DNA from: an uncultured virus (IMG/VR IMGVR_UViG_3300028805_000054)
Taxonomy: Duplodnaviria; Heunggongvirae; Uroviricota; Caudoviricetes
Length of the DNA: 64,000 nt
Direction: 5' to 3' (one strand)
IMG/VR virus record: IMGVR_UViG_3300028805_000054
The notes under the pieces were generated by a model, which had not been told where the DNA came from, did no database searches, and was given only the letters and a program-made list of their open reading frames with translations. The first letter of the stretch is position 1; each line of letters begins with the position of its first letter. Positions 3,045 to 57,658 of the stretch are shown one piece after another. The translations under genes and the position numbers were made by a program.

Positions 3045-4284
3045 CTTTCTCCTCCTCTTCTTCTCTAAGATTAACTGTCGTAGGAGTCTCAAAGACATAT
3101 TGGAGTATTGATTTAACAAACTCTGTATATGCTTCTTGAATCTTCTGATATCTCATTTTAGATACAAACCCAGATTTTTTGTTCTCCATAAGAGCCATTT
3201 TATATGGTATCATAAGATTTTGACACGACTTTCTAACAGAGACACCTAAAGATGATGCGCCGAGGAGAGCATTAAGATTCTTCCCACTCAAAATCTGTCC
3301 GGTGATTTCTTGCATGATTCCAAGAAGATCCGTAGTGAAAAGAGATTTCATTATTTTAAGAGCCTCTGGTGAAATTTTTTCTGGACCACCCTGTGATTTA
3401 AGAGCTTGACGATAATCCATAATGAGACGTCTGAAACGAATCCTAGGACTAAGCTTTCCAAGTCTTGTTCTTTCAATAATATGAGCCTGTGAGAATTCCT
3501 TCTGCTCTACTTTTTGAGTTTCATCATTAATAACTTCTACATCTTCAAAAGTACTATAAGATTTAGCTTTCAAGATCGTAAATTGGTTATTAATCTTTGA
3601 AGTTTTTGGTGTGTTAATTTCAAGACCAAGTTCATTAAGATTTGAGAAGGTCTTTACTTTATATCCATCAAATCTATCTCCAGCATCTACTTCACTAAAT
3701 GATTTTTCACCAAGCAAAGAACTAACAACATTTCCATCATCATCCATTACTTCAGTTACATAACTACCAGGAAATGATGGATTTAGCGTAAAGTCTACTC
3801 CTTTACATGCTACAAGTTTCTCCAGACGATCTTCTCCATTTTTCATTCCACTCCATAAACCAACAAGAACGCAAGATATACCTATACTACTGTGTTTTAG
3901 AAGGCCCTTAATACGGAGAATTGCCTGTTTTGCTTTATCATCAAAATCATTTTCATCATAAATCTGAACTTCTGCCCACCAAGCCCCATTCTCAATCCAC
4001 ATTTTATCAATATAGTGAGTAGGAGGACAGCCGCCGTTTCCAGTGGTTATCAAAATGCCATCATCCTTACCAATTGTTTTAGAAAGATTAGATGCTACTG
4101 ATTCAGAAAAATCTTGAGCCTTTATATTTCTAACTCTATGTGTAAGAGAGCCAATCATTCTATGTGCTCTAATAGATTCTTGAGCTTCGGGAGAGTCTAG
4201 ATATTGTTTAACCACATCAGAAGAGACTACTGAACCGTCGCTTGCATGTGATCCGAATTTTAAAATTCTTACTTTTACTCTCAT
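3031..4284 (-). CDS. Prohead (maturation) protease, T4 gp21/HK97-like fold
   Basis: IGSLTH (His), IGISCVLVG (Ser), GVDFTLNPSFPGS motifs; located between portal and scaffold. Confidence 0.75.
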   Translation of the reverse strand: MRVKVRILKFGSHASDGSVVSSDVVKQYLDSPEAQESIRAHRMIGSLTHRVRNIKAQDFSESVASNLSKTIGKDDGILITTGNGGCPPTHYIDKMWIENGAWWAEVQIYDENDFDDKAKQAILRIKGLLKHSSIGISCVLVGLWSGMKNGEDRLEKLVACKGVDFTLNPSFPGSYVTEVMDDDGNVVSSLLGEKSFSEVDAGDRFDGYKVKTFSNLNELGLEINTPKTSKINNQFTILKAKSYSTFEDVEVINDETQKVEQKEFSQAHIIERTRLGKLSPRIRFRRLIMDYRQALKSQGGPEKISPEALKIMKSLFTTDLLGIMQEITGQILSGKNLNALLGASSLGVSVRKSCQNLMIPYKMALMENKKSGFVSKMRYQKIQEAYTEFVKSILQYVFETPTTVNLREEEEEKDGQN

Positions 4285-29780: not shown

Positions 29781-29878
29781 TTCTCGTGATAGGATTCAAA
29801 CCTATGACCTTCTCCTTAGGACGGAGCGGCTCTTATTATCGTTATAAGGCTAAACTTATAACTTTGAGCTACACGAGC
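29781..29878 (-). tRNA. Atypical or degenerate tRNA-Arg(CCT) with a hairpin inserted in the D loop
   Basis: CTCGTG/CACGAG acceptor, GCTC/GAGC D stem, CTCC-GTCCTAA-GGAG anticodon arm, ATAGG-TTTGAAT-CCTAT T arm. Confidence 0.55.
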
Positions 29879-34656: not shown

Positions 34657-35670
34657 TTATTTTTTATCAAGTAGTTCAAATCCTGCTTTTTTATCCTTTG
34701 TCATAAGATCTTTAAGGACAAAATATTCTCCTAAATCAGATGCTTTAGCCGTTTTCTGATAATCCAACCTTTCGTATAGGTTTTTCAGTGTAATTTTAAT
34801 ATCAGATTTAGCATATCGGTTTCCAACCTTAAATAATCGATATATTTCATCCTTAACTTGATCTTCCTTCTGACTATTTCCACTAAGTTTTGTAATCTCC
34901 CGTTTAATTTCAGCTTCATTATATCTATGTGCCCGAATTCCATCAAAACCTAAAAAGTCATAATAATCCTTATATTTATCCGGAATTAAACTAAAAAATG
35001 CAACCAGTTCATCCTCTGTTAGCTTATCCTCGTCTTCACCAAGATTTACAATAGATTTAAGCTTAATTTCTTCATTCTTGAGATTATTAAACTCTATTGA
35101 AAGCTTTCTAATATTATTATCTATATTCTCTAAATTTGTCTTAGACTCTATATATTTCTTAACATCATCCTCTATTAATCTATATACGATACAAGCATTA
35201 CTAATCTGCTTTTTCGGACTATAACATTTTAAACTCTCAGTGATTTCTTCTCTTTTCAGTTGTTTATTAGATATATCCAATTCTTTATAATGTTCCTGAA
35301 GAATATAATCCACTAACCAGGGGCATACTGAATATCTTTTACTAGATTTTATAGTTAATGTAGAAAGTTTATTCATGAGTTTTTCTGTAGTATCATATGT
35401 ATCAAAGAAATCAATAACTTTAGGGCAATATTCTAGATATTCCCTGCCAAACAATATGCAATCTTTGAAATATTGCTTAAGTTTTGATTCATCATCTAAA
35501 GTAAAATCACCCTCATATAAATGCAACACTTCAACAGTTCTATGATATTGACCATAACCATATTTATTTCTGCTTTCTTTGAAATCTTTAGAATAACCGA
35601 TCTTTACCATATAACCTAACTTCCTATTCTCATCCATCTGAGGTAATAAAATAACATATAAGTTTGTCAT
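34657..35670 (-). CDS. GIY-YIG (T5orf172/MUG113-like) nuclease fused to the helicase-type C-terminal domain
   Basis: LYVI...VKIGYS.D...R...E..L...F; C-terminal EIYRLFKVGNRY...KTAKASDL. Confidence 0.7.
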   Translation of the reverse strand: MTNLYVILLPQMDENRKLGYMVKIGYSKDFKESRNKYGYGQYHRTVEVLHLYEGDFTLDDESKLKQYFKDCILFGREYLEYCPKVIDFFDTYDTTEKLMNKLSTLTIKSSKRYSVCPWLVDYILQEHYKELDISNKQLKREEITESLKCYSPKKQISNACIVYRLIEDDVKKYIESKTNLENIDNNIRKLSIEFNNLKNEEIKLKSIVNLGEDEDKLTEDELVAFFSLIPDKYKDYYDFLGFDGIRAHRYNEAEIKREITKLSGNSQKEDQVKDEIYRLFKVGNRYAKSDIKITLKNLYERLDYQKTAKASDLGEYFVLKDLMTKDKKAGFELLDKK

Positions 35671-35744: not shown

Positions 35745-37832
35745 TTATTGTTTTTCTAAGATTTCTACTCCATGTTTCTTATCTGAAGTATAAACCTTCT
35801 TTACCTTGAAATATTGTTCAAGATCTGATGCTTTCGCCGTTTTTTCATATTCAAGACGTTCATAAATCCCCTTTAAGGTTGATTTAATATCTTTATTGGT
35901 ATACCGATTGCCAATTTTGAATAATCGATATATTTCTTCCTTCAGCTGATCTTCTTTATGACTATTCCCACTAAGACTATCAAGTTTTCTTTTAACATAT
36001 GATTCCTGACATTTACAAGCTTTAATTCCATCAAATCCCAGAATATCATAGTACTCTTTATACTTACGTGGAATATAACTAAAGAAAAGGTCTAACTCAT
36101 CATTTGTTAGTTCCTCACCATCTTCTTTACAATCACCTAAAGCCACAATGAATCGAAGTTTAGAAACGACATCCTTTAGCTCCTTAAACTTATCTGCCAA
36201 CTCACAAATAGGCTTATTAATCTCTCCAGTAAGCCCTTTTGATTGAATTGTATTAATCACTGTAAAACGATCCGCATAATCTGTCTGTTGCATCTCAAAG
36301 GCTCTAATCTCTGAAACCTGCATTAGACGATTGAATACTGGGACCATATCTTTACCCATATGTTCATTAACAGCTACATAATCATCCTTATAGTGAAATG
36401 TTTTAGCCAACTTCTGATATGCCTCTGCTAAATTATGCTTATCCTCAAAAGATACAGAACTGTAAGATCTAAGAAGAGATATTGTTTTTCCCTCTTTCTC
36501 ATCCAACCTGGCTTTAAATTCTTCCCAGGTTGTTTTAAGATTAGCCCTTGTCGTTTTTACAAACATAGTAGCATGATTTTTCCAGGGATTTTCTTTAAGA
36601 CGCTGACGACCTAATATCTGCTCTAAGTCCATACTGATATCGACCGAAAGACATTCAATATTACTGTCACTAAAAATGAAAGTTCTAGCGCAATCCGAAT
36701 AGAAATCAGCACCTAAATAAACAGTGCGGGTACAGAAGGTAAACATTTTATGATCTTCTCCTCTTCTAGGTATTTTCCCTATAACAGGGCCTTTGAGCAA
36801 TTCAGGATCTTTAATTCCCTCCTGTTCAGCCTTCTTCTTAATTACATAGTTAAAGGCATCTCTTACTTGTTTTTCATTTTCAGTTCTCTTGGCACATAGA
36901 ATATTACACTGATCTATACTCAAGTTGTTTGTTGTAATAGCTTTGCAAATACCAGCTACTGAATTCAAAAAGAATACTGCCTCATCAGATTGAAAATTCC
37001 AGATCCTACCTACATCATCTTTTATATGAGCAATCTCAAAGTCTCCGGCCAAATAACTCTGTATAACCTTCGAGATACTAGCATTCAAGGACTTTGTTGT
37101 AAACTTAATATCAAGCTTAGGTTTTACAACCCTTCCAGGATCCATTGTTTTCCAGTCAAACTCATAATAGGGAAGATTACAGAATTCGGGGAGCATCTCT
37201 AAGTACTTATCTAGCATTGGAGTAGCTGATACAAAACACACTCTCTTAAGATCCCTAAGATTATTGACAAGTTCTAATTCAGCATCAGATTTAAATCTAG
37301 CATCAATAAAGATACTCTGAAATTCGTCTACTACAATTTGAAAATTTCTAATCTGACCTTTCAATGCCTCCTTAACATGCCTGAAAGAATCATAAGTAAC
37401 CATAATTTTAACTGGCTTACCCCAGACTCTACATTTTGCAACATGTTCAATCACCTTAAATTTTAGTTCCTCAATAGATTCCCTCTTTTTATCAGGATCT
37501 ACTTCTTTGTTTGACTTTCGATCCTCCCTATCCACATTGGTCTCATAATCCGTAATAACTTCCGTTTTATTCTCGGCATAGTAAATATTAGGGTCCATTA
37601 AATGTTGACCAAGCTTATTCTCTAAAAGGAATTTTCTTGGAGATATCAATACTAAATCCTGATCATTAGTAAGACAATACTCTGTATAGCCACATCCTGT
37701 AAGAACTTTGTTGACTATATGTGGAAAATCATAGTCCTCTAGATTATAACTATGTTCTTTTCCAAAATATTTTTCCCAATCCCCTAAATATTCAATTCCA
37801 TAGGGTACTACAATAGGTTTTTCTTTTTTCAT
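35745..37832 (-). CDS. SF2 helicase-like protein (possible origin-binding/replication protein), copy 1
   Basis: TGCGYT (atypical Walker A), SPR, TYDSF, VVDEFQ, SATP, FCTRTVYLGADF, QILGRQR. Confidence 0.8.
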   Translation of the reverse strand: MKKEKPIVVPYGIEYLGDWEKYFGKEHSYNLEDYDFPHIVNKVLTGCGYTEYCLTNDQDLVLISPRKFLLENKLGQHLMDPNIYYAENKTEVITDYETNVDREDRKSNKEVDPDKKRESIEELKFKVIEHVAKCRVWGKPVKIMVTYDSFRHVKEALKGQIRNFQIVVDEFQSIFIDARFKSDAELELVNNLRDLKRVCFVSATPMLDKYLEMLPEFCNLPYYEFDWKTMDPGRVVKPKLDIKFTTKSLNASISKVIQSYLAGDFEIAHIKDDVGRIWNFQSDEAVFFLNSVAGICKAITTNNLSIDQCNILCAKRTENEKQVRDAFNYVIKKKAEQEGIKDPELLKGPVIGKIPRRGEDHKMFTFCTRTVYLGADFYSDCARTFIFSDSNIECLSVDISMDLEQILGRQRLKENPWKNHATMFVKTTRANLKTTWEEFKARLDEKEGKTISLLRSYSSVSFEDKHNLAEAYQKLAKTFHYKDDYVAVNEHMGKDMVPVFNRLMQVSEIRAFEMQQTDYADRFTVINTIQSKGLTGEINKPICELADKFKELKDVVSKLRFIVALGDCKEDGEELTNDELDLFFSYIPRKYKEYYDILGFDGIKACKCQESYVKRKLDSLSGNSHKEDQLKEEIYRLFKIGNRYTNKDIKSTLKGIYERLEYEKTAKASDLEQYFKVKKVYTSDKKHGVEILEKQ

Positions 37833-37867
37833 ATAATATCATCAAATAACTGAGAGCCCTTAAACAG

Positions 37868-37940
37868 GTCTCTCGTAAAATCCACTGACGTGTATTTTAA
37901 AACCGTCAGCTCCTCTTTCTTATATTCACATTCATAAGGA
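37868..37940 (-). promoter_or_regulatory. Promoter core plus conserved 5'-leader hairpin of helicase cassette 1
   Basis: TCCTTATGAATG then GAGCTGACGGTTTTAAAATACACGTCAGTGGATTTTACGAGAGAC; conserved at 53798-53890. Confidence 0.7.
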
Positions 37941-38039
37941 ATTCGAGTCTTCTGAACGGAGTTTTTTGCATTTAAACTTCTAGTATGGAGCCATCCCCAA
38001 TAGGAATATAGTAAAATGGAAAAATTGCAAATCACTGTC

Positions 38040-38740
38040 TAGAAAATTAAGCCATATTCCCACACACTTTTCTTTCTTGCCTTCGGCGTAGTCTTTAGTG
38101 TGTATTAGTTCATGGCTTGAGGGAAAGACAGTGATAAGGAAAACCAGCCAGAAAGAGAGCGTTATGTGGGTGGGCAAAGTATAATAAAATCTCGCCTCCG
38201 GCAAAGAAGAACATACTTTGGGTGGCACATAACAAAAACGGTCTGGCTGGGAAATAATTCAACTAGAGAAGATATTATGTGCCACCCCAAACGTATTAGA
38301 TTTATTCCTTCGGAGAAAAGATGACCACGTTTGAACCCACCCACATAATGAAAATCCTAGTTGTCTTATCTTTCTGCCTTTCATAAGATCAAGCTATAAG
38401 AGAATACACAAGATGGCGTAAAGCCCTTGTGTGAATGGTCATAGCTTTTTCAAGATCAAGGCAGGAGTTATCCTTAAAGAGATTACAGATATATTCAGGT
38501 TTTCTTCAATTGAGAGTGAAACGAAAAATTGAAGAGAGATGAAGGGTCCAACATTTTTGTGATAGCAAAAATAGCGTAGCGGGTTGTGGCTCTGGGGAGG
38601 CTTCATCTCATCTTTTTACATTATGCGTAAGCGAATATAATGTGATAGCCTTTATGATAACAAGAGAGAACAAAAAGAAAGACCTCCTCGATTCACTACG
38701 TTCATCTCGGGGGGTCAGACTCTCAACTGGTCAAAAAAAG
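38040..38740. other. Highly structured non-coding region (candidate origin or ncRNA)
   Basis: Nested inverted repeats at 38133-38370; several TACGC/TACGT motifs; no credible ORF. Confidence 0.55.
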
Positions 38741-38772
38741 AGTGGGAATTTAATCTTCCACCCTAATTAACT

Positions 38773-39060
38773 TCAGACTTTCTCAATTGTAAGAAGTTTT
38801 TCAAGAGAACCTGCTACTGGAATATGTTGACAATTTTCAATCAATCCTTCTGCAGGAACTATATCTTCATCTAACTCTCTGCAAAAATCTGAAAAATCAA
38901 CGCCTTTTATACCCAACAATTTTTCTCTAGGATCAGGAAAATCCTCACAATTTTCGTTATACAGGCATCGATTACAAATTAATTCATCTATTCTAATCTC
39001 TGCCATAGGGATTGCCTCCATCTCAATTTCGATTCCTCTATAATTTATTGTTGTTTCCAT
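38773..39060 (-). CDS. Cys-rich small protein, paralog of 33410-33667
   Basis: Shared Cys pattern and FPDPR. Confidence 0.7.
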   Translation of the reverse strand: METTINYRGIEIEMEAIPMAEIRIDELICNRCLYNENCEDFPDPREKLLGIKGVDFSDFCRELDEDIVPAEGLIENCQHIPVAGSLEKLLTIEKV

Positions 39061-39349
39061 AATCCTTAACTTTTTCTAATAGATACATAATATTCTGATT
39101 TACTTTTTCATCGAACTTAACCTTCTTGAGTAGTTTTTCAATATCTACTTCATAATAAAAACTATTCAGCCTAGTAATAAATTTTACGTCAGGTCTCATT
39201 ACGGATACTGAAGCTTTATCCCCAAGTATAGATCCTGGAAAAGGAGATTTAACTTTAAGAATAATAGTCTCAAGTTGGATGAAATGATAAGTAAATCTCT
39301 CAAATTCATTTCCTTCTCTTTCTTTTGTAAAATAATAATAAATTTTCAT
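39038..39349 (-). CDS. Hypothetical protein, paralog of 32500-32823
   Basis: Shared IQLETIILKVKSP. Confidence 0.7.
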   Translation of the reverse strand: MKIYYYFTKEREGNEFERFTYHFIQLETIILKVKSPFPGSILGDKASVSVMRPDVKFITRLNSFYYEVDIEKLLKKVKFDEKVNQNIMYLLEKVKDYGNNNKL

Positions 39350-39379
39350 ATCATATATAAGGATTTTACATTTATGCTT

Positions 39380-39604
39380 TTAATATAATCTAAATCCAAC
39401 TTCTTCAATTCGTTTTTGTAGGTACCTGATTAAGAATTCTGCTTCATTTCTAGATGGACAGGTATGTGCAGATTCAGTTTTCTTAACAAACTCCACTCCA
39501 CTATAACCAACGCATCTATAATAGAAGATCTTAGATGTCCTTTTATTGCCACCTTTCACAGCCACTCTATATTTCTCATCACAGTAACAAGGAAACATTC
39601 TCAT
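39380..39604 (-). CDS. Hypothetical protein
   Basis: Overlap-coupled in operon. Confidence 0.55.
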   Translation of the reverse strand: MRMFPCYCDEKYRVAVKGGNKRTSKIFYYRCVGYSGVEFVKKTESAHTCPSRNEAEFLIRYLQKRIEEVGFRLY

Positions 39605-40395
39605 AATTTTCCTGCTACTAATATTTTTTGTGTTATGGTATTGAAAAGGAGTTCTTGTTTACCCGTTATCATATCGTGGGAGAGCCAAGTAATCATTATA
39701 ATCTGATCTCCTTCCATTGAGTAAACCCCATAACCGTTGAGTGTTTTAGTGATAGCGGTTAGGGAATTTAGGTTTAGGTAGTGTGATAGTTCTGAGTCCC
39801 CCGTGTTTGCTAGTTCTTTCAATCCTTCCCAAAGTTTCATCCTATCTTGTATCTCCAACTTCATTATTTCTTCTGGATATATAAATTGGCCTAGAAGTTC
39901 GGAAGAGAAACCTGATGAAACAAGGGAAGCACCGCCCAACAGATCTAAGACAACAGCTTCTTTTAGGTTTCCGGTGTATCCTCTATATCCTTTCCCACGT
40001 TTTTCAAATCTCTCCAAGTAATGTTCAGTAAAATGGATCTTGAATATATTATAGTTTTTCCCGTGATCCATTCCTTGTAAGAGCCATATTCGATCTGGGT
40101 TTTCGTCCTCCAGGTAATGAAAGCACATAAACATTGGACTTCCTTGGCTAAATTTTAGGATAGTGGTGAACAGGAACATTTTTAAGGAGGGGCATATTTT
40201 TGGGTTTACTCTTCCGAATATCCAAGGTAAGATCTCCGCTTGTTTCGCTTTCCTGCCTTCCTCCTCTATTTCCTTACTCCTGCCCGCTTGTTTCCCAATA
40301 TAGTATTGTTCTTTCTGCAGGATTACGCTCTCATATTTCTCTAGTAGTTTAAATATTTCTTCTCTTTCATTTTCCTGCCTTATATTCCCCATCAT
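39601..40395 (-). CDS. Hypothetical protein
   Basis: 264-aa coupled ORF; FTEHYLERF motif. Confidence 0.65.
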   Translation of the reverse strand: MMGNIRQENEREEIFKLLEKYESVILQKEQYYIGKQAGRSKEIEEEGRKAKQAEILPWIFGRVNPKICPSLKMFLFTTILKFSQGSPMFMCFHYLEDENPDRIWLLQGMDHGKNYNIFKIHFTEHYLERFEKRGKGYRGYTGNLKEAVVLDLLGGASLVSSGFSSELLGQFIYPEEIMKLEIQDRMKLWEGLKELANTGDSELSHYLNLNSLTAITKTLNGYGVYSMEGDQIIMITWLSHDMITGKQELLFNTITQKILVAGKL

Positions 40396-49532: not shown

Positions 49533-50036
49533 GTGAAGATAAAAGACGTTAGGTTAAAGACAAATGGAGAATATGTATGTCTAACTTTATGGCTTATGCT
49601 CCCAGACGTTTATACATTTTGGTGGGGACTGGGACAGGGAGATCGTGACTGGCTGGAACTCTGTTGGAAGGAAAAGAGACTAGAAGATATAGAAAAGTTT
49701 ATGGAAGGAACCAGGCTTAGTCTTTGTCGCGGGAGTATTAAGATCGGGGCAAGAGGGAGATTACCAAAGAAGAAATTTTCATGGACTAGATTTAAGAGGA
49801 GAACTTTTGGAATATGGACAGAACTTAATACTCCTAAACCTCCGATGAGAAATACCCGCGACGTTCTTATAAGCCGGATCACACGCTTCCTAACCCTTCT
49901 TGAGATACCTTCCAATATTATCATCCCAAACTTGAAAGATTATATTACACTCTATATACTAAAAAGAGATCATCAGCAACCCACGACTAACGATACCATC
50001 GGGTCGAGGGCATGTAAATGCCACTATGCTGATTAG
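49533..50036 (+). CDS. Hypothetical protein whose 3' end is replaced by the IscB element left end
   Basis: ORF reads into the element after ...ILKRD. Confidence 0.55.
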   Translation: MKIKDVRLKTNGEYVCLTLWLMLPDVYTFWWGLGQGDRDWLELCWKEKRLEDIEKFMEGTRLSLCRGSIKIGARGRLPKKKFSWTRFKRRTFGIWTELNTPKPPMRNTRDVLISRITRFLTLLEIPSNIIIPNLKDYITLYILKRDHQQPTTNDTIGSRACKCHYAD

Positions 50037-50330
50037 TCTAAGTGAAGTCTCTATGTGTCACGAGATGATAGAAAGAGCTGAACTACGTTATGTGTGAATG
50101 TAAGAATGTTATCTCGTATTTAACTTCTTATACAATAGGTACCTATGGATATTCTTCCAAGTCTGTAGCTCTACGATTTATGGTTAAAAGTTTCTGCTGG
50201 GTAGGAAACAGTGCTGTAAATAATAAACCACATAATAACATTGACGATGGGAGTACTACCTTTAAAGTTGTTGATCATAATAATATGATTAATAATAATA
50301 AAGTGTCTTATTGTTAAACAATTTTTAAAT
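49955..50330 (+). ncRNA. omegaRNA (HEARO-type) with guide derived from the 5' flank
   Basis: Typical blocks GATTAGTCTAAG, ACTACGTT, ATAGGTACC, CCAAGTCTGTAGCTCTACG, GTTAAAAG, ACAGTG, AACATTGACGATGGG. Confidence 0.8.
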
Positions 50331-51626
50331 TAAAATGAAAGTTTATGTATTAGATTGGAAAGGAAAACCAATTATGCCTACCTCTAGAGGAGGCAGAGTT
50401 AGGTGGCTTTTGAAAACAGGAAAAGCCAAAGTTGTGAGAACTATTCCTTTTACTATTCAATTATTGGAAGAGAATAGAAAATATTATACTCAAGAGATTA
50501 ATCTAGGTATAAAACCAGGATCTAAAGAATTAGGGATATCTGCTACTTCAGAAAAAGAAGAATTATTCTGTGCATCTGTAAAATTAAGAACAGATATAGT
50601 AAATCTTCTATCTACCAGAAGAGAGCAGAGGAGAACTAGACGGAGTAGACTTAGATATAGAAAGGCTAGGTTCTTAAATAGAGTTAAAACCAAAAAACCT
50701 GGTTGGATAGCTCCCTCTATTCAGAATAAGATACAATATCATATCAAGATAGTAGAATTTGTCAATAAAATTTTACCTATATCTAATATGATATTTGAGA
50801 TAGCTATCTTTGATATTCAGAAGATAAAAAATCCTAGTATTAGTGGAGCACAATATCAGAATGGACCACAGAAAGACTTTTGGAATGTACGTGAATATGT
50901 TTTACATAGAGATAATCACGTCTGTCAACATTGTAAAGGTAGGTCTGGTGATAAGATCTTAAATGTACATCATATTGTATCAAGAAAGACAGGAGGTAAT
51001 TCGCCAGGAAACCTGATTACTTTATGTAAGACTTGTCATAAGAACTATCATGAAGGTAAGATTAAGTTATCCATTAAAAAGAGTAGGTCTTATAAAGATT
51101 TAACATATCTTAATATAATGAGAGATAGATTATATAAAGAGTTATTCAAGAGATATGGATTTATCTATATTACCTATGGTTACCAAACTAAATGTGATCG
51201 TATATCTAAGGGTCTATTAAAGAGTATAGATACAGATGCTTATGTTATCAGTTCTGGTGATACTAATCCTTTATTAAGTGATACTATATATTGTATTAGT
51301 CAGGTTCGAAGACATAATAGACAAATACATAAGTTTAAAATTCTTAAGGATGGAAAGCTCAAAAAGAACCAAGCTTCTTATAAAGTCTTAGAATATCGTC
51401 TTAATGATGTAGTGAAGTATCAAGGAGAGAGGTATTATATAGGAGGCCGTAGGGAAAGAGGAGACTTTAATATTAGGTCATTAGAAGGAGATCGTAAGCT
51501 AGATATATCATATAAGAAGTTAAAATTTTTATATGAGCCTAGACGAATATTTATGTATATTGAAAGAAGGAATATTACTCCAATTCCTCCCACCTCTAAA
51601 TCAGTGGGTTCCCTTGGAGTGTAATC
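49972..51626 (+). mobile_element. Non-autonomous IS200/IS605-family IscB (OMEGA) element, no tnpA
   Basis: Left end ATCAGCAACCCACGACTAA; right end TTCCTCCCACCTCTAAATCAGTGGGTTCCCTT; omegaRNA plus iscB inside. Confidence 0.8.
50335..51624 (+). CDS. iscB: IscB RNA-guided nuclease; HNH intact, RuvC catalytic residues substituted
   Basis: PIMP (PLMP) N-terminus, RREQRRTRRSRLRYR bridge helix, CQHC..HHI..N..NLITLC..CH; RuvC-I reads LGIKPG instead of LGIDPG. Confidence 0.9.
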   Translation: MKVYVLDWKGKPIMPTSRGGRVRWLLKTGKAKVVRTIPFTIQLLEENRKYYTQEINLGIKPGSKELGISATSEKEELFCASVKLRTDIVNLLSTRREQRRTRRSRLRYRKARFLNRVKTKKPGWIAPSIQNKIQYHIKIVEFVNKILPISNMIFEIAIFDIQKIKNPSISGAQYQNGPQKDFWNVREYVLHRDNHVCQHCKGRSGDKILNVHHIVSRKTGGNSPGNLITLCKTCHKNYHEGKIKLSIKKSRSYKDLTYLNIMRDRLYKELFKRYGFIYITYGYQTKCDRISKGLLKSIDTDAYVISSGDTNPLLSDTIYCISQVRRHNRQIHKFKILKDGKLKKNQASYKVLEYRLNDVVKYQGERYYIGGRRERGDFNIRSLEGDRKLDISYKKLKFLYEPRRIFMYIERRNITPIPPTSKSVGSLGV

Positions 51627-53399: not shown

Positions 53400-53760
53400 T
53401 TAGTTGAGAGCCTGAAGACCCTCAACATTGTTACCACTTTTATAAATAGCTATAACTGAAAGCTGAAACCAAAGGCTATAATAAAAGCTATAACAAGTGC
53501 CTATGCTTTTTACGTTACACAAAGCATTGTTCTGAGGTTAAGCCTTCCCGTGGCCACTCACCCGTTAACTGTAAATTACTCCCTCGTTACTGCGCAAGCT
53601 TGTAACTTAGTCATAATTTCAGCAAACGTCTTCGAACCCTTAACCTCTCAATTTCAATTACCCTACGCTAAAGCTTCGGGATTAAAATTGAAAGATTCCC
53701 TGGTTTATTATTTTGCCTTTTTTATAGAATAAATTCATTATAGTGATAAATATAATCTCT
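53400..53760. other. Hairpin-rich non-coding region upstream of helicase cassette 2
   Basis: GAGGTTAAG/CTTAACCTC, ATGCTTT/AAAGCAT and TTTCAATT/AATTGAAA stems with TACG/TGCG loops. Confidence 0.5.
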
Positions 53761-53797: not shown

Positions 53798-53890
53798 TCC
53801 TTATGAATGAAAGGAGGATGATTCTCTTGTAAAGAGAGAGTAAAAAGAGCTGACGGTTTAAAATACGCGTTAGCGGATTTTGTGAGAGAC
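53798..53890 (+). promoter_or_regulatory. Promoter core plus conserved 5'-leader hairpin of helicase cassette 2
   Basis: TCCTTATGAATG and GAGCTGACGGTTTAAAATACGCGTTAGCGGATTTTGTGAGAGAC. Confidence 0.7.
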
Positions 53891-53944
53891 TGTGTTCGAA
53901 GAACCAGGCTTTCATTTGTTTCAACATATAAAATTATATTAACA

Positions 53945-56095
53945 ATGGAAAAACATAAAATTATTGTACCAGAAGGAGTAAGGTACATAGGAGAAGTAAA
54001 TCCTGAAACTGAAGAGAGATTATGGGATTATGAATTAAAGGATTATGACTTTCAACATATCCTAAACAAAAAATTGACAGGGTGTGGATATACAGAGTAT
54101 TGTTTAGGAAATAGACAACTCTTAATTCTGACTTCTCCAAGAAAATTCCTTTTAGATAATAAGTGGGATCAACACAAGGACGAATACAATATCTATTATG
54201 TGAGGAATGAATTAGAGACTTCTGTTGATTATGAACTTGACCTAACTAAGGATGATCTTAAGTCCATCAAGGAGAGAGCTGAGAAGACGGAAGCAGGTAA
54301 GAAGGAAACTGAAAAGAATCTTGATAAGTTGAAAACAGATCTTAGAGATGCTATTAGAGCCTGGGAAAAAGTTGATAATGATAAACCTTTCAAGATTCTG
54401 GTAACATATGATTCATTCCGTCATGTTAAGGATGCTCTGACACATTTCTATGAGGATGAAAATGATAGAGAGGGTCCAGAGAAAAACATCTTCCCGGCTT
54501 TTCAGGTAGTGGTCGATGAATTCCAAAGTATATTCATTGATTCACGCTTCAAGTCAGAGACTGAGATTGAGTTACTTGATCAGCTTAGAGGAGTGCAGAA
54601 GGTATGTTATGTATCAGCTACTCCCATGCTTGATAAGTACCTGGAGAAGTTAGATGAATTTAAAGACCTTCCTTATTATGAACTAGATTGGGAGACAAAG
54701 GAACCTGGGCGAGTAGTGAAGCCAAAGTTAGAAATTAGATTTGTAACGTCTTCTCTTAATCAGGCAGTTAATGGAATAATTCAAAGTTATCTTAATGGAA
54801 AATTTGATACTAGGATTGATCCTAATACAAATGAGTTTATTGAATCTAATGAAGCCGTTTTATTCTTAAATTCAGTATCTGGTATTTGTCAAGCTATCAG
54901 AACTAACAAACTTCATAGGGATCAATGTAATATCATTTGTGCTAAGTATACATCTAATGAATCAAAAGTTAGAGCAGCTTTCAATGATGTTCTAAAGAAA
55001 GAAGCAGAAGCGATTGGAGTTAAAAAACCTAAACTAATAGGAAGTTCAGAAAAAGTTATAGGTTCAATCCCAACTAAGGGCCAACCTCATAAAATGTTTA
55101 CTTTCTGTACTAGGACGGTTTATCTAGGTGCTGACTTTTATTCGAAATGTGCTCGTACTTTCATATTCAGCGATAGTAATATAGCATGTTTAGCAGTAGA
55201 TATTAGTATGGATCTCGAACAGATATTAGGGAGGCAGAGATTAGATGAAAATCCTTGGAAAAATTCTGCCATTATGTATGTCAAGTGTACTACTCTTAAA
55301 CATAAAACAACTAAAGAAGAATTTGAGGAGTTTATAAATGAGAAGTTAAAAAGATCCTCTATACTTCTATCTGGATATGATAAATGTGATGATGAGGAAA
55401 AGTTTGAAATTGCTAAAAAATACCAAAGTGACTCAAAAATCTCCCATTACAGAAGTGACTATGTAGCAGTAACGAGAATTATTAACCGGACAACAGGAAA
55501 AGTAGTTAAACTTCAACCTGTTTTAAATAAATTGGTTTTGATTACCGAGGAAAGAGCTTTTGAACTTCAGCAGGAAGATTATGCCGATAGATTCACTGTA
55601 TTTTCTTCTATACAAGCAGAAGGAATGGATAGTATTGAAGATGAAGTTGGTCAGAAGGTTGAAGAATTTGGTAAAATACGTTCTGTGATGGACAAGCTTC
55701 GATTTTTATTGAATTATTCTGATATTGCAAAGGCTGAAAATTTTGATAATTTTTTAGAGCTGATTCCAGGTAAATACAAAGACTATTATAAAATAGTTGG
55801 GCCAGAAATAATTAAAGCATGTGGATGTGATGAGAGTAAGATTAAAAAGAAATGGCAAGAAAAAGTATCTAATAGTGAAATAAACGACAATGTTGTTTCT
55901 GAGATCTATAAGATATTTATAGTTGGTCAAAGGTATTCAAAAGTCGATATAAAGAATAAATTAAAAATTCTTTATGAAAAAATGGGATATCAAAAGACAG
56001 CAAAAGCCACGGATCTTGAACTGTATTACATAATGAAGTCTGTGTACATAACCTCAGAAAAGAAGCATGGATATGAGTTGATTGGAAAACGATAA
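53945..56095 (+). CDS. SF2 helicase-like protein, copy 2
   Basis: Start re-called to MEKHKIIVP (aligns with MKKEKPIVVP of copy 1); same motif set. Confidence 0.8.
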   Translation: MEKHKIIVPEGVRYIGEVNPETEERLWDYELKDYDFQHILNKKLTGCGYTEYCLGNRQLLILTSPRKFLLDNKWDQHKDEYNIYYVRNELETSVDYELDLTKDDLKSIKERAEKTEAGKKETEKNLDKLKTDLRDAIRAWEKVDNDKPFKILVTYDSFRHVKDALTHFYEDENDREGPEKNIFPAFQVVVDEFQSIFIDSRFKSETEIELLDQLRGVQKVCYVSATPMLDKYLEKLDEFKDLPYYELDWETKEPGRVVKPKLEIRFVTSSLNQAVNGIIQSYLNGKFDTRIDPNTNEFIESNEAVLFLNSVSGICQAIRTNKLHRDQCNIICAKYTSNESKVRAAFNDVLKKEAEAIGVKKPKLIGSSEKVIGSIPTKGQPHKMFTFCTRTVYLGADFYSKCARTFIFSDSNIACLAVDISMDLEQILGRQRLDENPWKNSAIMYVKCTTLKHKTTKEEFEEFINEKLKRSSILLSGYDKCDDEEKFEIAKKYQSDSKISHYRSDYVAVTRIINRTTGKVVKLQPVLNKLVLITEERAFELQQEDYADRFTVFSSIQAEGMDSIEDEVGQKVEEFGKIRSVMDKLRFLLNYSDIAKAENFDNFLELIPGKYKDYYKIVGPEIIKACGCDESKIKKKWQEKVSNSEINDNVVSEIYKIFIVGQRYSKVDIKNKLKILYEKMGYQKTAKATDLELYYIMKSVYITSEKKHGYELIGKR

Positions 56096-56170: not shown

Positions 56171-57658
56171 ATGGATTTAACAAGTTTTAATTATGAGAAA
56201 GAAGGTAAAGAATATATTTACCTAGTGATGGTAGAGTATAAGGATAAGACTCTATTAAAAGTTGGTTATACAAAGACTTTAGAAAACAGAATGGATACCT
56301 ATGAACTACATAATCCGGATTTTCAGTTATTGAAAATTAGAGAAGGTACCAGAGGATTAGAGGTTTATATGCATAAAAAGTTTGAAAAATATAGGTATCC
56401 AAAAAGAGAGGAATGGTTTTACTATAATGAGGAGATTGTTGAAGGGTTTGATACTCTAGAAGAGATGAACTTTTTAGATATTGGTAAACTTAAAAATAAA
56501 ATTATAAATCTATTAAAACCAAAATCTATAGAAGAACTTAAAAAGATTTATTATGAAAGATATCAAAAAGAGATAGAGGATGAAAATTTAAATAAAGAAG
56601 ATCTAGACTATACTATTACAAATGCATTTTCTTTTATTAACAAAAATATAAAAGACTTTATAGATGCTTTAGACTATTCAGGGATTCCATTAGAGATAAA
56701 CCCAGAGACTAGATATCAGGTTATAATACCAAATCCAATTTCTACAGTAGATATCAGCATAGACCTAGAGCAACTCCTAGGCAGACAGAGATTGATAGAA
56801 AATCCTTGGAAAGATTATGCTAAAGTATTTATTCGAACTTTATCTAAGAAAAATATTATAACTTCAGATAAATATTATGCGAAGTTAAATAGCAAAAAGA
56901 AAACTACAAATCAGCTTTTGGATACTTTTAAAGATGCTAAGTTTGAAAATAGAAAAGCTTTAGCTGAAACTTATCAAAGAGATGCTAAGGTTTCACATTA
57001 TAAGTATAATTATGTTTCTGTTACTGTAGTGAAGGATTGGGAAACAGGTGAAGTGAAGGATCTTATTCCAGAATTCAATAATCTAATGATGATCTCCGAC
57101 ATGAGAGCTTTTGAAGTTCAGCAAGTAGACTATAAAGATAGATTTACAGTATTTTCTGCAGTCAATCAAGGTGGAATTGAAGGGGCTACAATCAGATCCT
57201 GTGAAATGGTAGAGAAGTTTAACCATTTTGGGGATTCTACTGATAGATTAAAGTATTTAGCAGATATGAGTACTGATACTACATTAACTTCTCAAGATAT
57301 TTGTTCATTCTTAGAAATGATACCTAGTAAATATAGAGACTATTATGAGATTATAGGCCCTGAAAGAATTAAAGCTAACAAATATCGAGAATTAAATATT
57401 AAAAGAGAATTGATGAAAAATTCTTTAGGAGATGGTCCCGACGATAAAGTAATTTCAAGAATGGGCGATATGTTTAGAGTAGGTCATAAGTATTCAAAGT
57501 CTGGCATAAAGGAATCACTTAAGAAATTATATCAAGAGTTAGATTACAAGAAGACAGCAAAGGCAACGGATCTTGAGGTTATGTATGTTATGAAGGCTAT
57601 CAAACTACAGGAAGATGGTAAATGGGTAAATGGCTTTGAGATAATAGGTAAGCGTTAA
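56171..57658 (+). CDS. GIY-YIG (T5orf172/MUG113-like) nuclease fused to the helicase C-terminal half
   Basis: YIYLV...LKVGYT....R...YELHNP...LE..MH...EEWFYY; then VDISIDLEQLLGRQRL.ENPWK through KTAKATDLE. Confidence 0.75.
   Translation: MDLTSFNYEKEGKEYIYLVMVEYKDKTLLKVGYTKTLENRMDTYELHNPDFQLLKIREGTRGLEVYMHKKFEKYRYPKREEWFYYNEEIVEGFDTLEEMNFLDIGKLKNKIINLLKPKSIEELKKIYYERYQKEIEDENLNKEDLDYTITNAFSFINKNIKDFIDALDYSGIPLEINPETRYQVIIPNPISTVDISIDLEQLLGRQRLIENPWKDYAKVFIRTLSKKNIITSDKYYAKLNSKKKTTNQLLDTFKDAKFENRKALAETYQRDAKVSHYKYNYVSVTVVKDWETGEVKDLIPEFNNLMMISDMRAFEVQQVDYKDRFTVFSAVNQGGIEGATIRSCEMVEKFNHFGDSTDRLKYLADMSTDTTLTSQDICSFLEMIPSKYRDYYEIIGPERIKANKYRELNIKRELMKNSLGDGPDDKVISRMGDMFRVGHKYSKSGIKESLKKLYQELDYKKTAKATDLEVMYVMKAIKLQEDGKWVNGFEIIGKR

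Follow-up and report, generated by a model that had tools for sequence, protein, structure and literature searches.

Why do two adjacent hairpins, lying in a non-coding stretch of ~740 nt upstream of a helicase-like gene that belongs to a huge phage of sheep-gut metagenomic origin, carry internal loops that are complementary to one another? The sequence-only reading of this locus had proposed a selected tertiary fold or two-state switch, in which the loops of the two arms pair in a paranemic or double-kissing geometry. We re-examined the block in the window, i.e., the whole 64-kb stretch of DNA analysed, and found all claimed strings in place between 38133 and 38370. The cross-arm complementarity is real, with both 13-nt word pairs perfect, and a small G+C tip hairpin is present at the apex of each arm. 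A repeat search returned the underlying inverted repeats at 38162-38174 / 38336-38348 (13 nt, 100% complementary) and 38217-38232 / 38275-38290 (16 nt, 94% complementary); no other copies of the 13-mers occur in the 64-kb window at 0 mismatches. The block consists of the following elements:

38133..38370, no strand assigned: twin-arm block, with outer GATAAG (38133-38138) and CTTATC (38365-38370)
38144..38250, minus strand: arm 1 hairpin module (CM R1 match of 88.5 bits; DNA fold z of -5.32)
38144-38152 / 38242-38250: closing stem of arm 1, CCAGCCAGA / TCTGGCTGG
38162-38168 / 38226-38232: middle stem of arm 1, TTATGTG / CACATAA
38169-38174 / 38221-38225: internal loops of arm 1, GGTGGG / GGTGG
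38175-38182 / 38213-38220: inner stem of arm 1, CAAAGTAT / ATACTTTG
38260..38363, minus strand: arm 2 hairpin module (CM R1 match of 92.6 bits, read on the plus strand; DNA fold z of -3.30)
38260-38266 / 38357-38363: closing stem of arm 2, CAACTAG / CTAGTTG
38275-38281 / 38342-38348: middle stem of arm 2, TTATGTG / CACATAA
38282-38287 / 38334-38341: internal loops of arm 2, CCACCC / AACCCACC
38288-38294 / 38327-38333: inner stem of arm 2, CAAACGT / ACGTTTG
38162..38174, plus strand: word A, TTATGTGGGTGGG, outer helix of the four-way junction, partner at 38336-38348
38220..38232, plus strand: word B', GGGTGGCACATAA, central helix of the four-way junction, partner at 38275-38287

Read on the helicase-sense (minus) strand, arm 1 has the C-rich loops CCACCC / CCCACC and the apex GCC-GGA-GGC (38194-38202), and arm 2 the G-rich loops GGTGGG / GGGTGG and the apex TCC-GAA-GGA (38306-38314). 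The two strings said to close the whole block, GATAAG and CTTATC, do exist, but the closest relative, L084, has no counterpart and the outer 6-bp pairing is therefore unsupported as a conserved helix. A 454-nt DNA contig from run X1 covers 37967-38420 with no differences, so a second assembler, possibly working on the same sample, arrived at the same arrangement. Run X1 also holds an 'opposite strands' joint between 37912 and 38436 (depth 18, side 34, a single short-sided contig), and run X4 holds joints from 38232 to 38403 and from 38232 to 38498 (side 23, one short-sided contig each); these joints could reflect an inverted variant and relatives lacking arm 2.

Both strands of 38125-38380 fold far below shuffled sequence. 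The plus strand reaches -84.0 kcal/mol (shuffles -53.3 +/- 4.3, z of -7.07) and the minus strand -89.7 kcal/mol (z of -7.41), with 0/200 shuffles as good in either case. No kissing or paranemic geometry is needed to accommodate the cross-arm pairs, which form two plain nested 13-bp helices, an outer one (A/A') and a central one (B'/B), and no pseudoknot. On both strands the minimum-energy fold is a perfect four-way junction, 6-12 kcal/mol below the twin-arm form. Constrained RNA folds gave -84.0 kcal/mol for the four-way junction vs. -71.9 kcal/mol for the twin arms on the plus strand, and -87.6 vs. -81.0 kcal/mol on the minus strand (minimum -89.7 kcal/mol); constrained DNA folds gave -39.2 kcal/mol vs. 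-33.1 and -32.5 kcal/mol. If the region were made single-stranded, its most stable fold would thus be predicted to run through the outer helix, hairpin 1, the central helix and hairpin 2. The loop duplexes amount to -13.4 and -10.2 kcal/mol as RNA, and in this model the twin-arm form plus both duplexes would sum below the four-way junction when no strain penalty is applied, so that kissing would be energetically allowed.

In metagenomic contigs of huge phages, a conserved three-tier hairpin module of ~105 nt sits upstream of related helicase-like genes, and both arms are copies of it. The plan of the module runs from a closing stem through a spacer loop, a 7-bp middle stem and an internal loop to a 7-8-bp inner stem, which is topped by a small G+C tip hairpin. 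CM R1 identified nine instances and one fragment in 99 sources: two in the window, one each in L084, L085, L086, L089, L090, L092 and L096, and the fragment in L100, where the contig end cuts the module and only the 3' word is visible. That the arms are real selected hairpins is borne out by covariation of the stems across the nine instances. In a model-fitted alignment, i.e., one fitted to the structure, of these related and non-independent modules, 14/25 pairs change on both sides and 98.2% of cells pair; 0/500 shuffles reach 14/25, and slid controls yield at most four such pairs. RNAalifold on a MAFFT alignment still reports 10/25 covarying pairs. 

The related loci in viral contigs were recovered with the family alignment A2, a single-protein query having given none. 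Blastn of 37800-38800 against phage records returned no match, and neither the G-type nor the C-type module pattern had an exact match in the viral and genome contig collections. No comparable inverted repeats precede the genes of the distant helicase relatives L001-L003, taken from GenBank phage records, and in the phages Phab24 and D'Alembert the ~0.9-1.35 kb upstream is AT-rich (26% G+C) with no recognisable module.

The loop words are a property of the family. GCCACCC and CCCACCC stay the same beside TTATGT / ACATAA in both window arms and in L085, L092 and L096, and L090 has the same words beside CTATGT / ACATAG, while the inner stems next to these constant words vary (AAAGTAT, CAAACGT, TAAGCAT, TCAAATGT). 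The strict constancy of the internal-loop words is not accounted for by the explanation that we favour below. The G-rich and C-rich loops might be read as a G-quadruplex or i-motif; AT-type modules are devoid of such tracts. A reading of the CCACC direct repeat in the loop strands as a target-site duplication was dropped, as the AT-type modules of L084 and L089 have no such repeat.

A comparison with the relatives separates the hairpins from their complementarity. All six relatives with a complete module region (L084, L085, L086, L089, L092 and L096) have a single module, including L084, whose protein is 96% identical and whose flanks are near-identical, yet whose one module has AT-type loops. 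No second twin-arm locus was found among the relatives, the window being the only one, and a G-rich partner is absent anywhere in the single-module loci L085, L090 and L100. Identity is 57% between the two window arms, 67% between arm 2 and the L092 module and 69% between arm 1 and the L085 module; each arm resembles modules from elsewhere at least as much as it resembles its neighbour. The core of arm 1 is near the L092 and L085 modules, and the 3' half of arm 2 matches the cut module of L100. These comparisons speak against the proposed tertiary fold or switch and against selection on the cross-arm pairing.

The complementarity has a potential source in layer polarity, since every layer of the module is seen in either orientation. 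Read on the helicase-sense strand, five modules have purine-rich and three pyrimidine-rich spacers, and six have pyrimidine-rich and two purine-rich loops. The tip on that strand is GNA in 8/9 modules and TTC in L086. Both arms would carry the family-wide 13-nt words (middle stem plus internal loop), with the layer bounded by the middle-stem inverted repeat lying in opposite polarity in one of them, and a hairpin-mediated small inversion would give exactly such a layer flip. A flipped copy of a shared conserved word is complementary to the original by construction. The cross-arm complementarity would then be a by-product, and the two-arm junction an accidental extra of one phage. With the kissing or paranemic reading unsupported, the finding as first stated becomes an ordinary one, a flipped repeat. 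A sister element type, represented by 80 IMG/VR loci, carries a conserved 15-nt word in the sense polarity only (33 loci), in both polarities (17) or not at all (30); its sense variants TATG and TATA both co-occur with the same antisense variant, and hence there is no compensation.

The twin arms are the middle of a longer arrangement, a row of four hairpin units at 38031-38464 with a start-to-start spacing of 113-116 nt. All four share one fold plan (z of -3.2 to -5.3), fold about equally well on both strands and are capped by a small G+C hairpin, which is a C-GNA-G mini-hairpin in three of the four. On the minus strand, CCGAAGG occurs in arm 2 (38313) and in hairpin (e) (38086), and arm 1 has CCGGAGG. 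The two remaining units and the other hairpins of the non-coding stretch, all on the minus strand, are:

38374..38464, minus strand: hairpin (c), the first unit on the helicase-sense strand; three-tier, apex GGC-TTTAC-GCC, z of -4.61
38031..38135, minus strand: hairpin (e), the fourth unit; three-tier inverted repeat, apex GCC-GAA-GGC in helicase sense, z of -4.34
38504..38534, minus strand: hairpin (b), small and conserved, stem CTTCAATT / AATTGAAG, loop likewise conserved
38536..38609, minus strand: conserved long-range hairpin (a), an inverted repeat also found upstream of a paralog at 53534-53647
38734..38765, minus strand: putative terminator-like hairpin plus seven T, from a reading of the sequence (fold of -11.7 kcal/mol, z of only -1.1)
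37870..37916, minus strand: conserved leader hairpin GCTGACGG...CGTCAG, upstream of the helicase-like gene (z of -3.12)

Hairpin (c) is kept in L084, L085, L089 and L092, and its core is flipped in L091; hairpin (e) was seen in the window and, of the relatives compared, in L084 and L100 only. The leader hairpin is common to the leader of the paralog. The terminator-like hairpin lies just past the stop codon of the upstream gene (38773-39060).

RNA-library runs X7 and X22, both from one sample, contain contigs identical to the window over 37000-37914 and contigs at 38772-39511, of which some are identical and some derive from relatives. The part between, 37957-38739, has no depth in these RNA runs and is covered by the DNA runs X1 and X4. 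The contigs carry no ends or strands and the uncovered part is itself no evidence, so this pattern is no more than a hint that the row is not an abundant RNA. The stretch bearing the row is probably not transcribed. A promoter scan was uninformative (five promoter-like sites vs. 3.3 expected), and a terminator scan flagged one site, the tip of arm 1 (vs. 0.8 expected).

Several explanations other than a flipped repeat were weighed. Selection could have acted on the complementarity itself, with the closing stems kept and the loops pairing with each other, or with a switch between twin-arm and four-way forms, the structure being a substrate or sensor of the helicase-like protein. Both matches are perfect over 13 nt, the energy sum of twin arms and loop duplexes rivals that of the four-way junction, the sister type tends to both polarities around a central hairpin (17/80 loci), and four-way architectures recur upstream of paralogs. 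We nevertheless consider such selection very unlikely: one arm is the rule in the six complete relatives, L085, L090 and L100 have no partner, the arms are only 57% alike, and the words are conserved family-wide whether partnered or not. The sister type, moreover, changes one side uncompensated and has a single copy in 33/50 word-bearing loci, and half of all pairs should be of opposite polarity if layers flip freely. It is just as improbable, in our view, that the twin arms are a selected Holliday-junction-like device, for which this phage would have coupled a module with a flipped copy and in which an unwound strand or cruciform would adopt a four-way or tight double junction and serve the SF2-like protein as a loading or recognition site or switch, with huge gut phages carrying several such pairs of helicase-like gene and structured DNA element on a four-way theme. 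A structured RNA, which could be an extended helicase-like mRNA leader or an ornate ncRNA of ~700 nt in its own right, would be in keeping with the strong covariation of the stems, with at least six conserved hairpins in ~740 nt of non-coding sequence, and with tips and a G-T pair that favour the helicase-sense strand; large ornate RNAs do occur in phages and rumen samples. This seems unlikely in light of the variable module number among close relatives (0 to 3) and of layers and cores that flip relative to the gene (L086, L091 and the window), which would turn C-rich into G-rich loops on one RNA strand. The tips are triloops of the GNA kind, which is stable as DNA, and not the tetraloops common in stable RNA; upstream of the row stands a terminator-like hairpin with seven T; and 36500-40000 has no Rfam match at E up to 1. 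In the whole window the Rfam gathering score is reached only by HEARO and a tRNA, both elsewhere.

The hairpins may also be selfish or neutral palindromic insertions of a MITE- or REP-like kind, whose stems are kept by palindrome mutation and spread rather than by benefit to the phage. Near-identical flanks enclose variable numbers of units (four in the window, three in L084, two in L089, L085 and L092, one in L093 and L091), module types are swapped between loci with 96% identical proteins, and polarity flips are tolerated. Such elements are, however, expected to disperse, and CM R1 finds only two adjacent copies in the 64-kb window, the next match having an E of 0.84. The modules always occupy one slot, upstream of the helicase-like gene family, their internal-loop words stay invariant as adjoining stems change, and the GNA tip remains on one strand in 8/9 modules, which together make an insertional origin unlikely. 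As the row sits between two co-directional units, it might instead terminate or insulate transcription between the upstream operon and the helicase-like gene, and T-rich blocks do follow soon after the module in L085, L089, L092 and L096. We regard this as extremely unlikely: no T run follows the closing stems of the window arms, large loops separate those stems from the G+C tip, the site flagged at the tip of arm 1 barely exceeds expectation, a canonical-looking hairpin with seven T already stands behind the upstream gene, and termination does not need conserved loop words.

Overall, we favour, with moderate confidence, a tandem row of hairpin modules that act as single-strand DNA signals and whose cross-arm complementarity arose as a by-product of a layer flip. 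The modules may act as DNA, on the strand that carries the sense of the helicase-like gene; this choice of strand follows from the C-GNA-G tip being kept there even where outer layers flip, and draws only on the GNA tips and one G-T pair in nine related, non-independent modules. They would be cis-acting hairpin signals, bound by a protein once the strand is unwound, and could be used in priming, loading or another protein-DNA step.

Two known systems share parts of the module plan and were set aside. Integron attC sites are single-stranded hairpins in which an unpaired central spacer separates the outer from the inner stem and the tip varies, and thus resemble the succession of outer stem, spacer, inner stem and tip seen here. 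The attC core triplet is missing from the modules, a G precedes the middle-stem TT in 1/9 of them, and no integrase or tyrosine recombinase was found in the window. The bridge RNA of IS110 elements lies upstream of a gene and forms two stem-loops with specific words on both strands of their internal loops, like the two stem-loops with internal loops upstream of the gene studied here. In contrast to the bridge RNA, the loops here are complementary to each other and not to target and donor; there is no IS110-type recombinase among the window ORFs and no Rfam match, and the relatives have one arm.

The proposed single-strand DNA role of the row finds closer parallels in replication and transcription signals. 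Among DNA mini-hairpins, extra stability is attributed to GNA triloops only (PMC13037366; PMC4496689), and the C-GNA-G tips make a single-stranded-DNA reading plausible through their resemblance to ssDNA initiation signals and N4 hairpin promoters (PMC13037366). The oriV of the IncQ plasmid RSF1010 contains ssiA and ssiB, two 40-nt inverted repeats (PMC8567376) that form a pair of hairpins with the same words in inverted polarity. According to PMC13037366, ssiA has the mini-hairpin CCGAAGG, identical to the tip of arm 2 and of hairpin (e), and both elements work as single-stranded DNA after helicase unwinding, as proposed for the modules. The likeness is one of description, and the ssi elements differ in being 40 nt long rather than three-tier modules of ~105 nt. 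The loop words are inverted between the twin arms, but both GNA tips lie on the same strand, and instead of a pair the relatives carry a lone module or rows that reach four units. A RepB'-type primase, iterons and an initiator as in RSF1010 were not recognised among the 76 ORFs or in the sequence of the 64-kb window.

Promoters of the N4 virion RNA polymerase are likewise small DNA hairpins capped by GGA or GAA triloops, which act on one strand only and are extruded from double-stranded phage DNA, according to PMC4496689 and PMC13037366. They have 5-7-bp stems (PMC4496689) and conserved flanks and stand alone, unlike the tips described here, which are of 3-4 bp and sit atop a long three-tier hairpin. 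No virion-type (T7-like) RNA polymerase family is represented among the ORFs of the 64 kb, and N4-type use of the helicase-sense strand as template would send transcripts away from the gene. For the flips, a parallel is found in plastids: in PMC12371153, hairpin-facilitated small inversions are described as pervasive in chloroplast DNA, in whose non-coding parts segments bounded by short inverted repeats flip repeatedly and independently, as do the three layers of the module. These minute inversions are a mutational process rather than a function, are described in plastids and not in phages, and are quoted there at 4-50 bp, slightly below some flipped segments of ~60 nt here.

The gene downstream of the row encodes a protein that the sequence-only reading had called a helicase, a name with weak support:

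35745..37832, minus strand: 695-aa helicase-like (SF2-like) gene; its family has multiple copies in contigs of huge phages

DEFQ, SAT and GRQR motifs are visible in the family, by our own reading of the sequences, and one distant phage homolog (24.5% identity) is annotated as a DEAD-like helicase, but 0/30 members match a Pfam helicase domain, and the 695-aa protein has no sequence match in Pfam, NCBIfam or PDB. The nucleotide-binding loop is TGCG[YF]T in all members; judged from these residues, the nucleotide-binding lysine is replaced in this SF2-like protein. The protein of L084 is 96% identical but accompanied by the other loop type, which makes it improbable that this protein specifically recognises the loop words. 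A Pfam scan of the 76 ORFs in the window, which is 64 kb of a larger genome, detected no primase, initiator, recombinase or phage RNA polymerase. The sign of the GC skew is constant across 36-42 kb and the genes on both sides lie on one strand, indicating that the row is not a bidirectional origin.

Less ordinary than the flipped repeat is the unit beneath it, a covarying three-tier DNA hairpin module with an ultra-stable mini-hairpin cap. In huge phages of the ruminant gut, one to four such units line up in front of the genes of a multi-copy helicase-like family. The module has no Rfam entry, and no description was found in literature searches, which did not cover every possible name. The twin arms also give reason for caution, as adjacent hairpins can come to have complementary loops with no selection for it. 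Nested layers that flip independently also provide a clean natural case of hairpin-mediated inversion outside plastids. If the modules are single-strand DNA signals, they would offer a handle on priming, loading or control at several sites in genomes of 350-400 kb.

The sequence-only reading had described two arms whose internal loops are complementary across arms, and all the strings it listed are present in the window, confirming the observation. A repeat search returned two inverted repeats, one complementary at 13 of 13 positions (38162-38174 / 38336-38348) and one of 16 nt at 94% (38217-38232 / 38275-38290); the 13-mers have no further exact copies (0 mismatches) elsewhere in the window. 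The region 38125-38380 folds at -84.0 kcal/mol on the + strand (z -7.07) and -89.7 kcal/mol on the - strand (z -7.41), with 0/200 shuffles as good on either. The proposed kissing-loop twin arms did not emerge from these folds: the predicted minimum-energy structure on both strands is instead a perfect four-way junction, in which the cross-arm pairs plus the TTATGTG / CACATAA stems form the outer 13-bp and central 12-13-bp helices, while the inner stems of both arms remain hairpins. Forced folds gave -84.0 for the four-way junction vs -71.9 for the twin arms (RNA, + strand), -87.6 vs -81.0 with a minimum of -89.7 (RNA, - strand), and -39.2 vs -33.1 and -32.5 (DNA). Taken alone as RNA, the loop duplexes come to -13.4 and -10.2 kcal/mol. 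With the closing stems retained and the two loops paired as well, a structure would compete energetically if it carried no strain cost.

The arms are the middle two of a row of four units that share one three-tier plan and a small G+C tip hairpin; on both strands their folding z-scores lie between -3.2 and -5.3. Relatives carry one to three such units. The coordinates of the four units, with the helicase-like gene last, are:

38031-38135, hairpin (e)
38144-38250, arm 1
38260-38363, arm 2
38374-38464, hairpin (c)
35745-37832, (-), helicase-like gene, 695 aa

Unit starts are regularly spaced, 113, 116 and 114 nt apart. Two further conserved hairpins lie upstream of the row, and a hairpin trailed by seven T comes immediately after the upstream gene. 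Downstream lies a conserved leader hairpin common to the upstream region of a paralog in the window, a region with no modules. A 68-aa ORF (37829-38035, -) that abuts the helicase-like gene and overlaps the conserved leader and the paralog-shared hairpin is probably not a real gene. One contig from a DNA sequencing run (X1; depth 18, shorter side 34 nt) joins 37912 and 38436 on opposite strands and may represent a variant in which the segment with hairpin (e) and both arms is inverted.

Each arm is one instance of a conserved hairpin module. In metagenome contigs that hold closer relatives, a like hairpin occurs at a like position, 230-480 nt 5' of the gene: in L084, L085, L086, L089, L092 and L096, and as cut copies in L090 and L100. 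Eight copies were used to build a covariance model, which, searched against 99 sources (750 kb in total), gave no convincing modules beyond the known copies. Across the nine copies that are complete or almost so, 98.2% of pairing cells are paired and 14/25 pairs have changed on both sides in an alignment fitted to the model; none of 500 column shuffles came near this value, nor did slid registers. RNAalifold on a plain MAFFT alignment gave 10/25. Closing stems vary (CAGCCAGA, CAACTAG, CAACCAGA, CAGCCAA), as do inner stems (AAAGTAT, CAAACGT, TAAGCAT, TCAAATGT), and TTATGT / ACATAA and the C-type loop words GCCACCC and CCCACCC are invariant.

How, then, did complementary loops arise? A selected tertiary fold, as first envisaged, is at odds with the relatives. 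All six with a complete module region have a single module. One of them is L084, which has a 96% identical protein and flanks that match the window nearly base for base. L085, L090 and L100 hold no G-rich partner anywhere. Nor are the arms a recent duplicate: identity between them is only 57%, and for either arm there are modules on other contigs that resemble it as much or more. What the two arms share perfectly are the conserved words of the family. On the helicase-sense strand these have C-rich polarity in arm 1, as in L085, L092 and L096, and G-rich polarity in arm 2. Each module layer was found in both polarities, independently of the others: L084, L085, L086, L089 and L092 have purine-rich spacers, L096 and the two arms of the window pyrimidine-rich ones; purine-rich loops occur in L086 and arm 2; GNA is the tip triloop of 8/9 copies, with TTC in L086; and the core of hairpin (c) is flipped in L091. 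A known mutational process flips segments bounded by hairpin stems in plastid non-coding DNA (PMC12371153). Any conserved word is by its nature complementary to a flipped copy of itself, hence the complementarity of the arms; with free flipping, complementary words would be expected in half of neighbouring module pairs. The complementary-loop geometry is thus a by-product, and we regard this structural and evolutionary account, a module family with flipped words, as very probable.

What the modules do is more tentative. On the helicase-sense strand, a C-GNA-G tip is present in three of the four units (CCGAAGG in two, CCGGAGG in one), and tip polarity stays on one strand even where outer layers are flipped, so we read the modules as possible single-strand DNA hairpin signals on that strand. 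In this view the tip would be displayed by the long stems, and the conserved loop words could contact a protein. According to PMC13037366 and PMC4496689, extra-stable DNA mini-hairpins are restricted to GNA triloops, CCGAAGG is the ssiA mini-hairpin of the RSF1010 origin, and GGA or GAA caps the promoter hairpins of N4 virion RNA polymerase; ssiA and ssiB are described as two inverted repeats of 40 nt (PMC8567376). Several observations count against signalling through single-stranded DNA: the window yielded no recognisable primase, initiator or polymerase, neither GC skew nor gene direction changes at 38 kb, the tip stems are short, and L084 shows that the helicase-like protein does not dictate the loop type. 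Rivals to this reading, which we hold to be doubtful, are a structured RNA, selfish palindromic insertions, terminators and the selected tertiary fold. Rfam has no entry for the module family or its variable rows, and a non-exhaustive literature search found no description of them.

The adjoining gene had been called a helicase. Helicase-like motifs (by our reading, DEFQ, SAT and GRQR) are visible, but neither the 695-aa protein nor any of 30 relatives matches Pfam, NCBIfam or PDB sequences; a distant homolog in a phage carries the annotation DEAD-like helicase. A TGCG[YF]TEY loop is invariant in the 30 members of the protein-family alignment (A2), with Tyr/Phe where we would expect the nucleotide-binding lysine, and by sequence the protein may bind nucleotide but not hydrolyse it. 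The family comprises 4967 proteins at E <= 1e-10, with several copies per 350-400 kb IMG/VR contig; the window paralog (53882-56095, +) is 51.5% identical. Directly behind both helicase-like genes stands a gene that ends in a copy of the helicase-like protein's own tail:

56171-57658, (+), gene with helicase-like tail copy
34657-35670, (-), gene with helicase-like tail copy

One copy covers residues 396-695 (40% identity) behind a T5orf172/MUG113 domain, the other residues 529-695 (56%). Distant homologs in the cultured, about 90-kb phages Phab24 (Acinetobacter) and D'Alembert (Psychrobacter) are preceded, at a divergent-transcription point, by an AT-rich non-coding stretch of 0.9-1.35 kb, which in D'Alembert extends across one boundary of the annotated terminal repeat.

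By its gene content the window appears to belong to a huge phage, encoding ClpP, muramidase, amidase, SbcCD-like, 5'-3' exonuclease and HNH nuclease genes among ORFs that mostly lack a family; DNA runs containing the stretch are labelled sheep gut metagenome. At a switch of gene direction, a HEARO RNA (Rfam; 49972-50259, +; 88.6 bits, gathering 83) directly precedes a 429-aa RRXRR + HNH protein (50335-51624, +); together they make up a phage-borne IscB-like nuclease and its guide RNA. A 98-nt Rfam tRNA match (29781-29878, -; 38.4 bits), not reported by ARAGORN, may be intron-bearing or unusual.

Nearly all IMG/VR paralog loci carry, at the matching relative position, a very stable sister structure of outer helix, left arm, central hairpin with AT-rich loop, and right arm, the last with an unpaired 15-nt word. 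This word (CTCTCACTATGTTCG and variants) lies in sense 5' of the gene in 50/80 loci, about 230-270 nt before the gene start (L018-L081, locus 3228-3272) and without exception just 3' of a G+C hairpin; it may resemble a T7-class promoter core. Related words occur in L141, L148, L152 and the leader of L090, and at a single IMG/VR locus the entire element is inverted relative to the gene (L038 3000-3260 vs L024 3040-3270). Among the 80 loci, 33 have the word in sense only, 17 in both polarities and 30 not at all. TATG and TATA sense variants each co-occur with the same antisense variant, and therefore the "cross-arm" duplex changes one-sidedly, uncompensated. The sister element is a second, independent illustration of complementarity through a flipped word.
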